The notes under the pieces are model-generated. The model was not told the origin of the DNA and ran no database searches. It saw only the letters and a program-made list of their open reading frames with translations. A program made the position numbers and the translations under genes. This document shows positions 53,167 through 58,882 of a stretch of DNA of 61,837 nt, in pieces. The stretch comes from Deltaproteobacteria bacterium (GTDB taxonomy: Bacteria > Desulfobacterota > Dissulfuribacteria > Dissulfuribacterales > JALVPX01). How positions within the stretch are numbered: position 1 is the first letter of the stretch; the number at the start of each line of letters is the position of its first letter. The stretch lies in NCBI GenBank assembly GCA_027023445.1, contig JALVVK010000015.1:1-61837 (forward strand), read 5' to 3'.

Positions 53167-53433
53167 TTTCCCCCCTCCCACACACAATATCAATAGACCC
53201 CATGCCGTCCGGTTTTTGTGCTTCTCTCCTGACCAACCGTAACAGAATGATTAAAAAATATATCAGCGGACGCACAGGCGTACAAGAAGCAAACGCTGAT
53301 GAAACATTGTCCTCCCAGGCAGGTGTCTGCGTTTACAGATTTTTTAAAAATGATACCATTTAATTGGATACATCTTCCGTGAATGTTTAACTTTATAAAA
53401 TACAGGGGAAAATGGCGTTTTCGGAGGCAATCC

Positions 53434-54138
53434 ATGGAAACTGATATCAGTAAGGCCCTGACCTACCAGGTAAAAAGGGAAATAGCCGAGAGGTACTTTG
53501 GTTACAGGAAGATTATCGAGGAGGACAAGGAAAATCTGAACACCATGCTGAAAGACCTCCGGCGCTTTTACGAGGAAAGGGTGGGGGTGGATTTTATAAG
53601 GATCTACGTGCTGTTAAAGAACAGGGATCTTATCCGCTCATTTCTGGATATTCTGGGCTGGCCTGAGGGTGAGATCCCGTTTTACGATGATTATATTGTC
53701 CACTCCCCTACCATAAAAGAAAAACTTTTGAAAGGGCTGGAGCCCCATGGATGGACATACAGGGGAAGACTCGTCAACCTGCTCGCGGACTGTTATAAGA
53801 AATTGTTTGATGATATCGTTTCTTATCAGGACAGATATGAGGAATGTCTTGAAGAGGCAAAGATAATTAACGAAGAGATACGCCAGTTTAAGGAGAATTT
53901 TTCCCTGGATGAAATCCTGGGCTTTATAGGAGGCCTGGACAGGCACGATGATCTGGCGGGCGCCCTTGGAGAGAATATTCCTGTGGGGCACATGCAGGAG
54001 CTGGCTGAAAAACTCATAATTGAACCTGTGGACACGGAGTGTATAGGCCCCAGGCCGCCGATTCTTCCGCCACTGAAAAAAATAAAAGGCAGACTCAAGG
54101 AGCTTGTAGCTAAAGCGGAGGAGACTTTTACCCTGTGA
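53434..54138 (+). CDS. Hypothetical protein, largely helical
   Basis: GGAGG RBS, long charged ORF with no recognised motif. Confidence 0.75.
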   Translation: METDISKALTYQVKREIAERYFGYRKIIEEDKENLNTMLKDLRRFYEERVGVDFIRIYVLLKNRDLIRSFLDILGWPEGEIPFYDDYIVHSPTIKEKLLKGLEPHGWTYRGRLVNLLADCYKKLFDDIVSYQDRYEECLEEAKIINEEIRQFKENFSLDEILGFIGGLDRHDDLAGALGENIPVGHMQELAEKLIIEPVDTECIGPRPPILPPLKKIKGRLKELVAKAEETFTL

Positions 54139-55395: not shown

Positions 55396-55593
55396 TCAGG
55401 GGAGGGACCTGATCTTCCAGTGGCCGGAAATCCAGATGCCCTTCCAGTTATAATGACCTGGAATCCATATCCTGGCATATCCGTACCTGCATCTGTGGGC
55501 CCTGATCCGGCGAGGCTGAGACACTATCACGGTGCATGCCTGAAAAGCCAGGGTGAGACATAAAAGCGCCATGATTAAAACGGATTTTTTCAC
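55396..55593 (-). CDS. 65-aa lipoprotein with YXWGXW-type repeats
   Basis: GTG start with AGGAGG RBS; MKKSVLIMALLCLTLAFQAC lipobox-like signal; WIPGHY and WISGHW repeats. Confidence 0.75.
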   Translation of the reverse strand: MKKSVLIMALLCLTLAFQACTVIVSQPRRIRAHRCRYGYARIWIPGHYNWKGIWISGHWKIRSLP

Positions 55594-55923
55594 AATAGTT
55601 ACCTCCTGTTGAGCCTTTTTATGAGGCCTTGGCCGACAGGCACGTCCACCTGCCGGGAAGGCATTCACAGGGTCTGTGTCTTTTATCTGTTACTTTTGAT
55701 TCCATCCCTTTTCATCCCTTGGTTTGTCATCATGTCGTGTAAGATCCGGCATTTTTATTATTTAGCTGATTATTTCATTATGCCATATAGTGTCGCGTCC
55801 GGACATGAAAGACTTGTTCGGTAAATTATACGGAAATAACGAGTGTGGATGCGTATGCAGGATTATAATTAACATCCCATAATTTTTCTATCTGGCAGGG
55901 CGGATAAAGGGAAAATTTCCTTA

Positions 55924-55951
55924 TTGACAGGAAGTTTTTTCTGTATAAAAT
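55924..55951 (+). promoter_or_regulatory. Putative sigma-70 promoter for the DUF2589 cluster
   Basis: TTGACA-N16-TAAAAT about 150 nt upstream of the ATG at 56101. Confidence 0.5.
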
Positions 55952-56100: not shown

Positions 56101-56628
56101 ATGGCAGACCAGGTATCCCTTGACAACCTGATCGAAGGACTTGCCGGTGCTGTGGTAGAGGCTCAGCGCCGTATCGAATCCCGTCAGATCGAGAATCTGC
56201 AAGGTTTTTTTGATAAACATAACCGGCCCAGGGCCATTAATATAAGAGTGCCGTCTCTTGATCCCAACGCAAAGCCGGGACAGGATGATATCTACAGGGT
56301 TCCTCTCCTGCCGCTTGTCGCAAGCAGCCTGCTGAAAATTAAAGAGGTGGAGATCAGCTTTGATGCGGATCTCCTGAGCCTGGAAGATGAAGAAAAGGAG
56401 AAAGTAAGGGAGGCGGAAAACGTGGAGGATGAGTCAGAGGGCACAGCCCATAGGGGGGTGGGGAAAAAGAGGTCCATCAACGTGGATGTGCGTGGAGGAA
56501 TGTTTAGGCGAAAGGCCGGGGGGGTTCATGTGGTTCTTAAGGTGGAGGGAAGGGAGCCCTCCGAGGGTATGGCCCGGCTTATTGACCGGCTTATACAGTC
56601 CCAGGGTGTAGTAAAAATACCGGAATAA
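56101..56628 (+). CDS. DUF2589-like protein, paralogue A
   Basis: SLDNLIEGLAGAVVEAQ, VPLLPLV..LKIKEVEISFD and PSEGMARLID; AAGGAGG RBS. Confidence 0.78.
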   Translation: MADQVSLDNLIEGLAGAVVEAQRRIESRQIENLQGFFDKHNRPRAINIRVPSLDPNAKPGQDDIYRVPLLPLVASSLLKIKEVEISFDADLLSLEDEEKEKVREAENVEDESEGTAHRGVGKKRSINVDVRGGMFRRKAGGVHVVLKVEGREPSEGMARLIDRLIQSQGVVKIPE

Positions 56629-56690
56629 ATATGTGGTCAGGTATATGAAAAGCGTCGGACAAGAACATTTAAAGGAAGGAGGAAAACAGC

Positions 56691-57386
56691 ATGGCAAATG
56701 AATTAGTCAACATGTCGGATCAATTCCAGGGGCTTCCCATGGACAGCCTGATAGGAGGGCCTCTGGCCGCGGCCTGCGAGGCTCAGTTGAAACTGGCCAA
56801 TGCTACCGCGGATTTTATCAGGGTGGTTGGTTTCCTGCCTCCTGAAAAACCGGATCCCAACGACCCGAATGCCGTGGGAGACACGAGAACCGCGACTTTC
56901 AGGTTCAAGCGTCCTGTTGAGGTGCCGGCACCTCCGGGCGCGGATCTGACCGCGGGTGAACTGCCCGTGCCGACCATACACGAAGAAAAAGTGGAAATGG
57001 AGGTGCCCCTGCTGGCCATTGTAAAGGTGCCTGCCCTGAGCATCACATCGGTTGATATCACCTTTGACATGGAGGTTAAATCCTCGTTTTCCACATCCAC
57101 AAAGATTGCGGCAGAGGCCTCCATGAAGGGGGGGATTACCGCGGGCTACCCGCCGTTCATAAGCGCTCATGTCAGCATCCAGGGATCAGTGTCAACTCAT
57201 AAGGAAAATACTCGTTCATCAGACAATTCGGCTAAATATCACGTGGAGGTACATGCCGAGGATTCAGGAATGCCCGAGGGTCTGGCCAGGGTGATGGATA
57301 TCCTTCAGACTGCTATAGCCCCCAAGAATATCGAACGTCAGGGGAGTAAATCTAACCCGTCGCCCGCTGCCCCAACTTCTCCCTGA
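56691..57386 (+). CDS. DUF2589 protein, paralogue B
   Basis: GLPMDSLIGGPLAAACEAQ, EVPLLAIV, ITFDMEVK, NTRSSDNSAKYHVEVHA and PEGLARVMDIL. Confidence 0.85.
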   Translation: MANELVNMSDQFQGLPMDSLIGGPLAAACEAQLKLANATADFIRVVGFLPPEKPDPNDPNAVGDTRTATFRFKRPVEVPAPPGADLTAGELPVPTIHEEKVEMEVPLLAIVKVPALSITSVDITFDMEVKSSFSTSTKIAAEASMKGGITAGYPPFISAHVSIQGSVSTHKENTRSSDNSAKYHVEVHAEDSGMPEGLARVMDILQTAIAPKNIERQGSKSNPSPAAPTSP

Positions 57387-57482
57387 GGGGGATAAGGGTG
57401 ATGGATAAAGCAAAGGAACAGGCGCTCGCCTCCCTTGCGTACCATTTAGATATAGTCCGAACATGGCAGGGAACGGACGTTC

Positions 57483-57737
57483 ATGTTTGATCTGACAGAT
57501 ATTCGCTTTGTGAAGCGTATTTCCGTGGGCACAAGCAATCCTGCGCGCGTACTCACGGAAGAGGAGATCCAGAGCGCGGTGAACCTTCTAAACCGATGTC
57601 TGTCAGGTACCCCTAGGGGCACGATCATCGGTATTGAAAAGAGCTTCAGGGTGTTGAACATAGGCGAGCACCAGGCTGTTCTGCAATGGATTGTCTATCA
57701 TGTTGGATTTCCAAGAAAACCCGCATGGCTTGATTGA
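57483..57737 (+). CDS. 84-aa hypothetical protein in the DUF2589 cluster
   Basis: Compact alpha/beta-like ORF co-oriented within the cluster, ending YHVGFPRKPAWLD. Confidence 0.75.
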   Translation: MFDLTDIRFVKRISVGTSNPARVLTEEEIQSAVNLLNRCLSGTPRGTIIGIEKSFRVLNIGEHQAVLQWIVYHVGFPRKPAWLD

Positions 57738-57918
57738 CATATTCCGCTTTTGATGGCTTTGAATTTGAATTGTTCATCAAGCAATGTTGTTTAAGGGTCG
57801 AGGTGTTTGAGATTCATAACCTTTTTCCAGGCATTTTAAGCGCATTATCCTGGATAATTAGGGTTAAATAAATAATCAGGGTAAATCCCTGCCTGTATGC
57901 CAGAGGGGGCGTGTTGGC

Positions 57919-58551
57919 ATGAACATAAAAGGAGAGACGGAAGGCCTTGATTTAGATAGCCTTACAGATACGCTGCGCAACGCATTATCCGGTGCGAACC
58001 GTACTCTTCTGGCAGACCAGGAATCCGCCTTGCGGCGAATAATTGACGTAGGTGAAGACGGTGAGCCTGAATATATTACATGGCTCTGTTCCGTTGCCTC
58101 GCGGGACGGGCAAGACCAAAATTACGAAATGTTGCGCATGCCCATATCCGCCCTCAGAAGTGGAGACGTCATGGGCATTTCGGAACTATCTGTGGAGGTT
58201 GACTGCGTAACGGAGCACCCCCGTCAGGAAGAAGAAAAAGGCCTGGTCGAGCCATCCAGGTTGATACCTCTTTTAACAGGGAAGAAACGGCGTGGGGCGG
58301 CCGTGCGACATGTGAAAATTGCCCTTAAGGGCCCGGATGGAGCCGAGGGGAGTATTCGGATTGAAGAAGATTATCCCAAACCAGGGATTTTGTCTGTTTC
58401 AGAAGGTGATGAAGGACAAAACAGAGTCGGGGAGGAGCAATATGGATTTTTCAAGGGACAGTTACTGCCGTATTTTTGTCATCTGTATCATGTGGTTATT
58501 TCTTTCCTCCGCAGGCTTATGCGTTGCAGGGACCGCCCGCTGCGACCTTAA
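57919..58551 (+). CDS. Divergent DUF2589-like protein, paralogue C
   Basis: LDLDSLTDTLRNALSGAN, LRMPISAL..GISELSVEVD and HVKIALKGPDGAEG parallel the motifs of A and B. Confidence 0.6.
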   Translation: MNIKGETEGLDLDSLTDTLRNALSGANRTLLADQESALRRIIDVGEDGEPEYITWLCSVASRDGQDQNYEMLRMPISALRSGDVMGISELSVEVDCVTEHPRQEEEKGLVEPSRLIPLLTGKKRRGAAVRHVKIALKGPDGAEGSIRIEEDYPKPGILSVSEGDEGQNRVGEEQYGFFKGQLLPYFCHLYHVVISFLRRLMRCRDRPLRP

Positions 58552-58882
58552 ATCGGCAAACCTTGCCGGCAACTGGAAGGGCGTTTTGATTGAATCCGGC
58601 GGAGACCGTATTCCAGTTGATCTGCATGTGACCACGGAAAGAGATGAACCTGGATGCGAGCTGGATTATGGTCCTGATCGCAACTGTTCCCTGGAAGCAG
58701 TGGGTGCCGGTTCCGACGAGAAGACCTTCTACTTCAGGTTCAAGGACAGCGACGGCGGATGGTGTGACCGTTTGATAAACGGAAAGATGTCTCTTGAGAT
58801 AAAAGACCGCAATACCCTGGATCTTGATGTGCAAAACGCCAGTGGGTCGGTCAACGAATCCGTTGAGCTGAAAAGAAAATGA
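58442..58882 (+). CDS. Secreted beta-rich hypothetical protein
   Basis: GGAGGAG RBS, hydrophobic signal-like N-terminus, LAGNWKG first-strand motif, four Cys in the mature region. Confidence 0.7.
   Translation: MDFSRDSYCRIFVICIMWLFLSSAGLCVAGTARCDLKSANLAGNWKGVLIESGGDRIPVDLHVTTERDEPGCELDYGPDRNCSLEAVGAGSDEKTFYFRFKDSDGGWCDRLINGKMSLEIKDRNTLDLDVQNASGSVNESVELKRK

Follow-up and report, generated by a model that had tools for sequence, protein, structure and literature searches.

A DUF2589 gene module from a deltaproteobacterial genome that lies beside exchangeable phage-type endolysins in related loci

We analyzed a stretch of 61,837 nucleotides (nt) from a Deltaproteobacteria bacterium (assembly GCA_027023445.1, contig JALVVK010000015.1), referred to in full as the window. 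Positions 56101-58882 hold five co-oriented genes in the order A-B-D-C-E, which include members of the function-unknown protein family DUF2589, and these genes and their association with phage-type endolysins in other genomes are the subject here. As a preliminary description of this DNA had noted, the five open reading frames (ORFs) lie between aroB, upstream, and scpA, which is downstream and convergent; Pfam identifies the two flanking genes as PF01761/PF24621 and PF02616, respectively. The same description gave the genes their own promoter-like sequence. A near-consensus site is indeed present upstream of gene A (Table 1), but a scan finds 5 such sites where shuffled sequences lead us to expect 4.5, so the promoter is a consensus match only. 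An AAGGAGG ribosome-binding site precedes gene A. The start of gene E is probably the ATG at 58442, which has a GGAGG Shine-Dalgarno sequence 5-6 nt upstream, and with this start C and E overlap by 110 nt (58442-58551). At 0.49-0.55, the GC content of the module genes is no different from that of the window (0.523).

Table 1. Features of the DUF2589 locus in window coordinates.
Feature	Position	Strand	Details
Promoter-like site TTGACA-16-TAAAAT	55924..55951	+	11/12 consensus matches; ~150 nt upstream of gene A
Gene A, DUF2589 paralogue	56101..56628	+	175 aa; PF11655 E 3.9e-29; charged insert between core strands
Gene B, DUF2589 paralogue, most conserved member	56691..57386	+	231 aa; PF11655 E 1.3e-44
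Predicted amphipathic beta-hairpin of B (residues ~143-167), conserved; candidate membrane-inserting element	57117..57191	+	Ortholog alignment, column hydropathy
Gene D	57483..57737	+	84 aa; beta-alpha-beta-beta model; no Pfam family
Gene C, third DUF2589 paralogue, strongly diverged	57919..58551	+	210 aa; no Pfam match; hhalign to A profile 97.5%
Gene E, Sec-signal protein	58442..58882 (ORF open from 58319)	+	146 aa from 58442; ~110-aa domain, two invariant Cys

Three of the five proteins had been proposed to be DUF2589-like paralogues, with a profile search of the ORFs suggested as a check. That search makes A (102.4 bits) and B (152.7 bits) clear members of DUF2589 (PF11655, gathering score 23 bits), but it returns no Pfam match for C at E≤1. 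A and B align with 25% identity (E 2e-7), and C aligns colinearly with A (BLASTP E 0.002). At the level of profiles, 24 C-type proteins match 35 A-type proteins in hhalign with a probability of 97.5% (E 5.4e-12, 143 columns), compared with 62% only for the match to the B profile. Because C has no Pfam match of its own while its profile matches that of A in this way, C is, judged by these alignments, a diverged DUF2589 relative outside the current Pfam model. A jackhmmer search seeded with C among the ORFs of 80 related loci (see below) recruited 80 B-type, 79 A-type and 39 C-type proteins, and two more C-like groups match the C profile at 95.8% and 97.9%. The proposed trio is thus borne out by Pfam for A and B and by the profile-profile match for C, and the three ordered motifs it was said to share are visible in both the pairwise and the profile alignments.

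The related loci were fetched with B from species-representative genomes, and the best 80 of 229 confirmed loci were kept. Note that the 80 are not independent: many are close relatives, for example those from Luteibacter and Oxalobacteraceae. Their ORFs are longest-frame calls, which are unreliable in high-GC genomes, the searches among them used iterated profiles, and the flanks extend over 6 kb. Single-linkage clustering of the ORFs merged families and took in antisense ORFs, and was used as a lead only, one that pointed to lysozyme-like neighbours. B is present in 80/80 loci, A and D in 79/80 each and E in 57/80, the sole locus lacking A and D being a 2.7-kb contig; a C-like gene lies directly 3' of D in 71 of 79 loci, or in 76 if five over-extended ORF calls are included. 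The prevailing gene order is that of the window, ABDCE, found in 45 loci, with 5 more scored as ABCDE in which the C ORF is over-extended. The order ADCB follows with 20 loci, then BDCEA with 4, ABDE with 3, BDCA and ABDC with one each, and B alone in one. What is conserved is therefore a four-gene core of A, B, C and D, usually accompanied by E. The preliminary description had counted the 84-residue protein D and the secreted, cysteine-containing protein E as completing the set, and had proposed to look for their co-occurrence with DUF2589 in other genomes; with D accompanying B in 79 and E in 57 of the 80 loci, the five genes are co-conserved.

Conservation is uneven among the five proteins. 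B keeps 54-71% identity to its window counterpart across phyla, and 56 columns are invariant in an alignment of 42 sequences. D is 51-73% identical with 15 invariant residues (R12, G16, N37, C39, G46, E52, F55, G61, E62, H63, Q68, Y72, F76, R78 and P80). Orthologues of A are 30-60% identical and those of C 14-26%, and homologues of E are 13-31% identical. B and D are thus under strong purifying selection.

Large as the family is, there is hardly any literature on DUF2589 (PF11655, IPR024510), and the full texts searched mention it in passing only. A large protein collection contains 2821 relatives of B at E≤0.001, the best 120 of which, with identities of 63-100%, include proteins of Xanthomonas, Luteibacter, Rhodanobacter, Desulfuromonadales and Desulforhopalus. 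Near the window's own lineage the family is sparse. In an even sample of the phylum, PF11655 occurs in 7 of 401 genomes, the window's own included, and a search of 40 further genomes from the window's order detected no PF11655 and no D (0/40 for both). D is present in two of the six other PF11655-positive genomes of the phylum, namely the two with strong B-like matches, and adjoins B in both: only the B-type subfamily travels with D. The D family itself is small, with 111 clusters at E≤0.001 among 1.84 billion representatives. The tree of B interleaves Thermodesulfobacteriota, alpha-, beta- and gamma-Pseudomonadota and a Treponema, and searches with B among 50,697 phage and 72,556 plasmid records gave 1 and 7 matches, respectively. 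Together, the patchiness, the mixed tree and the rarity of phage matches show the module to be a horizontally spread accessory set and no phage gene set; the same record counts led us to reject prophage debris as its origin. In a check for a clean insertion, aroB and scpA were not adjacent in 5/5 relatives, so an empty site could not be shown. On a deltaproteobacterial plasmid, the module is followed by an annotated peptidoglycan-binding protein.

At locus L097 of the same phylum (G405:C10:127700-127960), a D homologue beside a B-like gene has one in-frame TGA in the matched frame. A 16-kb plasmid of Francisella hispaniensis (L085; NZ_CP018094.1, 1-1888) shows a different, simpler DUF2589 context: behind a response regulator it has just one annotated DUF2589 gene, and the annotation of this stretch lists nothing D-like. 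The sole match to B in the phage collection (H1; MT839761.1, 3341-3868; 28.8% identity) is on an unannotated 4-kb 'Bacteriophage sp.' contig from a faecal sample.

In most of the related loci the module has a further neighbour. A peptidoglycan-hydrolase-like ORF is found in the flanks of 72 of the 80 loci, and in 66 of them it lies on the same strand within 300 nt. These counts, like those for holins below, come from searches with seeded profiles; only representatives were confirmed by Pfam or PHROG. The neighbours belong to seven unrelated families: glycoside hydrolase family 19 (GH19; 34 loci), GH108 (28 loci), PG_binding_1+X (4 loci), GH24 (3 loci), VgrG3-like C (2 loci), DUF5675 (2 loci) and PF11860 (1 locus). 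Pfam assigns the representatives to GH19, in some cases together with PG_binding_1; GH108 with PG_binding_3; Phage_lysozyme (GH24); Muramidase PF11860 with PG_binding_1; LysM with a T6SS_VgrG3-like C domain; DUF5675, which a 2026 preprint groups structurally with C82-like peptidase lysins (10.64898/2026.04.11.717860); and, for the remaining type, PG_binding_1 followed by a C-terminal domain without a name. In PHROG, representatives hit endolysin families with E 2.6e-42 to 5.4e-84, and the GH108 ORF in many loci ends 4 nt before A. Export signals, scored as a 15-residue window with Kyte-Doolittle (KD) hydropathy of at least 2.2, were found in 0 of 74 hydrolase ORFs compared with 26 of 58 E proteins, so that the enzymes stay cytoplasmic until they are given a route across the membrane.

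The enzyme family changes while the module stays. Mapped onto the B tree, the hydrolase families require no fewer than 16 changes of label, the minimum possible being 7, and even the clade nearest to the window's B includes a GH24 locus (L022), a GH108 locus (L030) and three copies with no enzyme (L004, L005 and the window). The module is thus tightly linked to signal-less phage-type endolysins whose family has been repeatedly exchanged, a link that is a new result for DUF2589. Enzyme swapping beside a constant partner is a signature of phage lysis cassettes, so that holin/endolysin cassettes and type 10 secretion are the closest known systems. Small membrane proteins are part of the string in some lineages: 19 Xanthomonadales loci have two small membrane-protein genes 3' of E and include a holin-like gene, one representative of which matches the PHROG holin family phrog_2359 (E 3e-12). 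The string A-D-C'-B-GH19 of the lower-GC Collimonas locus L046 contains no transmembrane protein. Regulators are often nearby, LuxR-type response regulators in 33 loci and AraC-type regulators in 15.

The window's own copy is intact, with all invariant residues of B and D and the cysteines of E kept, and it stands alone. No endolysin-type hydrolase is found among the five genes or their neighbours in the window, so the preliminary description could not have seen the endolysin link. In the 99.4%-complete genome, PF05838, PF00182, PF11860 and PF18925 were not found, although control genomes were silent for these four families as well; PF00959 and PF21277 were also not found, with controls positive for PF00959 and weakly so for PF21277. 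Nor does the window have a PHROG holin match, its only strongly hydrophobic segment being the signal peptide of E (KD 2.45); the KD maxima of the other proteins are 1.2 for A, 1.71 for B, 0.62 for D and 1.03 for the tail of C. Eight of the 80 related loci likewise lack a nearby hydrolase, and the stand-alone copies, counted with the window, keep all invariant B and D residues.

We turn to what the individual proteins may do. The AlphaFold2 (AF2) model of B, built from 94 sequences with a mean predicted local distance difference test score (pLDDT) of 72.8, has a long N-terminal helix (residues 17-47), four long strands and a C-terminal helix, with three low-confidence stretches across residues 134-169. 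This low-confidence region is well conserved, and its alignment suggests a hairpin in which hydrophobic residues alternate with polar ones (~143-151 / 156-167) on either side of a G-W/Y-G-P-F tip; A and C have charged sequence at the same position. The B model has no convincing relative among known folds: the best Foldseek match in the Protein Data Bank (PDB) is a chain of the baseplate of an extracellular contractile injection system (eCIS; E 0.47, TM-score 0.14), and the best VIA wide match has Z 3.8. The model is only moderate, so a missing fold match, including one to beta pore-forming toxins (beta-PFTs), decides nothing. The DUF2589 profile found nothing significant among the sequences of solved structures (best E 0.036, to TrfB).

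D is modelled with high confidence (AF2, pLDDT 93) as beta-alpha-beta-beta, and its fold matches are marginal (Foldseek PDB E 0.066 to an Alba-like protein, TM-score 0.46; VIA wide Z 4.5; BFVD E 0.027); the D profile has no match among the sequences of solved structures. For D and E the ESM Atlas gave unnamed clusters only (0.91-0.92), and against NCBIfam, PADLOC and PHROGs none of the five proteins gave anything usable. In P0121 (340 residues) and in a separate representative, P0135 (363 residues), D is fused N-terminally to a GH19 domain, and a partial D is fused to an astacin-like peptidase in P0123. The arrangement of the former two, with D N-terminal of a linker and a GH19 catalytic domain, is that of modular Gram-negative endolysins, and other GH19 neighbours carry PG_binding_1 in just this N-terminal position. 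Unlike the modules of such endolysins, however, D has no detectable similarity to known peptidoglycan-binding domains and is normally a separate gene. A complex prediction of A+B+C with D scored 0.01 against a mark of 0.32, which speaks neither for nor against binding. Separately, five proteins of ~270 residues (P0203, P0205, P0207, P0211 and P0218) have a diverged D-like domain at the C-terminus; the N-terminal ~190 residues of this group have no Pfam family and no similarity to DUF2589.

Five of 12 aligned C orthologues end in a hydrophobic transmembrane-like helix, and in other loci a separate transmembrane ORF lies between C and E. The close C orthologues of L005, L022 and L030 have a clear transmembrane-like end helix and no overlap with E; that the tail in the window is weakly hydrophobic and overlaps E suggests a local remodelling of the C-terminus. 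E has a hydrophobic N-terminus and two cysteines that are invariant in 25/25 aligned homologues, and no family in Pfam, PHROG or PADLOC. The two-cysteine domain is duplicated in tandem in L007 (7545-8297) and L018 (7804-8589). We also considered E as a specific lysozyme inhibitor and rejected this, as E occurs with hydrolases of several unrelated families, while the 20 ADCB loci, which have GH19, lack it.

Since the module forms an operon-like string with a phage-type wall-cutting enzyme in most other genomes, it probably helps to breach the envelope from inside. The interpretation we tentatively prefer is that of an endolysin-coupled, envelope-breaching module comparable to a lysis cassette or to type 10 secretion, with the DUF2589 proteins as its conduit. 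A, B and C would then assemble at the inner face of the cytoplasmic membrane, with C possibly anchored by its C-terminal helix in some lineages, and the amphipathic beta-hairpin of B would insert and open the membrane. D would couple the muramidase to the A/B/C assembly, while E would act in the periplasm. The outcome would be a regulated permeabilization or lysis in which cytoplasmic contents are released; in the window's genome, the module may permeabilize alone or use a housekeeping autolysin. Four observations argue for a conduit: most loci have an endolysin but no recognizable holin, D is found fused to an enzyme, the predicted components lie on both sides of the membrane, and nine copies including that of the window persist intact without a lysis gene, which fits a self-sufficient activity.

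Several points weigh against this interpretation. The alternation score of the B hairpin (1.5-1.9) does not exceed that of the core strands, which reach a maximum of 2.34 at residue 120, so that the hairpin could be an ordinary sheet face. Compared with the amphipathic membrane-spanning hairpin of beta-PFTs of the aerolysin/haemolysin type, the B hairpin shows conserved alternation and an aromatic tip, at an alternation score within that of the core strands. Many lineages lack the transmembrane tail of C, which in the window is weak, and both assembly and membrane insertion are inferred. The 19 Xanthomonadales loci have a holin-like gene of their own, that is, a separate pore, and there the DUF2589 genes are flanked by endolysin and holin, the position that cargo genes occupy in type 10 loci. 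The window and 8 of the 80 loci lack a nearby hydrolase, and searches of the window's genome for six hydrolase families gave no match, with controls silent for four. Finally, the relatedness of the 80 loci, the longest-frame ORF calls and the 6-kb flanks limit the weight of the counts.

A bolder form of the preferred interpretation, which we regard as doubtful, is that the DUF2589 trio is a new, holin-independent device for opening the membrane from inside: a hetero-oligomeric beta-hairpin pore, with D recruiting signal-less endolysins and E completing the periplasmic side. Such a pore would be functionally gasdermin-like while structurally unrelated to gasdermins. If true, this would be an unrecognized machine for lysis or the release of large cargo, spread horizontally across Pseudomonadota, Thermodesulfobacteriota and Spirochaetota.

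The comparison with known systems cuts both ways. Type 10 secretion frees cargo folded in the cytoplasm by controlled lysis, with its genes embedded in toxin operons (PMC10847048), as in the cassette of Yersinia entomophaga that releases Tc toxin (PMC10847048; also PMC10109510 and PMC9527704). Like these systems and phage lysis cassettes, the DUF2589 loci have a signal-less phage-type endolysin in the same gene string (66 of 80 related loci) and, in 19 loci, a holin-like gene by PHROG; they often have a LuxR or AraC regulator close by, and non-orthologous swapping of the endolysin family is a trait they share with phage lysis cassettes. Unlike them, the core of three DUF2589 paralogues, D and E is not homologous to holins, to spanins or to any known cargo, a recognizable holin is missing from most loci, and the window lacks endolysin and holin alike; for members of the module, lysis or release is a prediction.

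The same comparison fits a different division of labour, which we judge unlikely, if still a serious contender: A, B and C may be the cargo, a multi-component membrane-active toxin or particle that is folded in the cytoplasm and released by an embedded endolysin/holin cassette of type 10. The three paralogues would then act like tripartite pore-forming toxins, D as a cytoplasmic chaperone and E as a periplasmic protective factor. The order in the 19 loci with a holin-like gene, GH108 endolysin, A-B-D-C-E, holin-like gene, resembles that of type 10 secretion genes embedded in toxin operons (PMC10847048), and the hydrolases are of phage endolysin types. Multi-component pore-forming toxins such as AhlABC, SmhABC and MakABE (PMC6602965, PMC7979752, PMC8617504), the tripartite alpha-PFTs, offer a parallel in that three diverged paralogues occur together, here with one whose conserved amphipathic element is modelled poorly as a monomer. 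Those toxins are of the helical ClyA family, however, while the B model is alpha/beta without a structural match, so the likeness would be one of logic only and not of membership. Cargo released by its own cassette also fits poorly with the intact genes that the window and eight loci keep without a nearby lysis gene, with the hydrolase families not found in the window's genome (given the silent controls for four of the six), and with the many loci that have an endolysin but no recognized holin (e.g. L046). In P0121 and P0135 D is fused to the lysozyme and not to a DUF2589 protein, and the 54-71% identity of B across phyla is unusually high for an antagonistic toxin; the missing fold match of the moderate B model to known pore-forming toxins again decides nothing.

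The remaining explanations are ranked less likely than either conduit or cargo. An envelope-spanning apparatus, with cytoplasmic A/B/C/D, a membrane anchor and a periplasmic E, would use the hydrolase as a non-lytic remodeller that makes room, by analogy with peptidoglycan remodelling in flagella and in type III, IV and VI secretion systems. Components on both sides of the inner membrane, a hydrolase adjoining in 66 of 80 loci and the VgrG3-like C-terminal domain of one hydrolase type would all suit it. We nevertheless consider it improbable: conserved genes for an ATPase, a secretin or other parts of a machine are absent from the flanks examined, the hydrolases are whole phage endolysin types without export signals, and E is missing from 23 of 80 loci.

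Equally improbable, in our view, is an abortive-infection or defence module that lyses or permeabilizes the cell upon phage infection. Its patchy, horizontal spread (PF11655 in 7 of 401 genomes sampled from the phylum and in none of 40 from the order), the mixing of phyla in the B tree and the lytic effector adjoining in most loci would be expected of such a module. However, no PADLOC-DB 2.0 model matched, the only hit being A to Cas8a with E 0.012 over 34 residues; what flanks the module are housekeeping genes and LuxR/AraC regulators, not defence genes, and there is no sensor-like component. Among the options that the preliminary description had left side by side, a pore, a filament and a role in antagonism or defence, the context favours a membrane- or envelope-active role tied to phage-type endolysins; a known defence system finds no support from PADLOC.

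The weakest candidate, and a highly improbable one, is a cytoplasmic structural or storage assembly of the R-body kind, unrelated to the envelope and with hydrolases that are prophage debris: B and D are highly conserved, as self-assembling proteins often are, and DUF2589 genes of Archaeoglobus fulgidus, which has them in tandem (AF0414-AF0417), are reported to be up-regulated on lactate (PMC3949148), but 66 of 80 loci have a same-strand hydrolase, from one of seven families, at a distance of no more than 300 nt, B has one match in 50,697 phage records, the flanks are housekeeping genes, RebB is not found in the genome (its control was silent) and E is predicted to be exported. The link to reb genes that the preliminary description mentioned was likewise not recovered: the RebA/RebB family (PF11747) was not found in the genome, where control genomes were silent too, and there was no RebB match among the Pfam-scanned flank proteins of related loci (91 + 12 proteins).

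For DUF2589 itself, these results define a subfamily that travels with two or three partner genes and is coupled to endolysins by repeated swapping of the enzyme family. They turn a function-unknown domain into a testable hypothesis, that of regulated lysis or protein release in bacteria of soil, rhizosphere and sediment. As the conduit, the DUF2589 proteins would represent a new mechanism for breaching membranes; as the cargo, they would be a new agent of several components that acts on membranes and has a type 10-like release. Either would be of interest to the fields of lysis, secretion and bacterial antagonism.

Two further ORFs near the module in the window are worth recording. The first, of 251 residues, lies upstream of aroB (53383-54138, plus strand) and has no Pfam family above cut-off; its best match, to a clostridial neurotoxin translocation domain (E 0.007), is probably due to chance, since its 16 bits fall below the cut-off of 25 bits. 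The second lies between aroB and the module on the opposite strand (55396-55668, minus strand) and encodes 90 residues with a weak match to DUF6726 only (E 0.16); translation from an internal start would give it a lipoprotein-like signal (…LCLTLAFQAC…).

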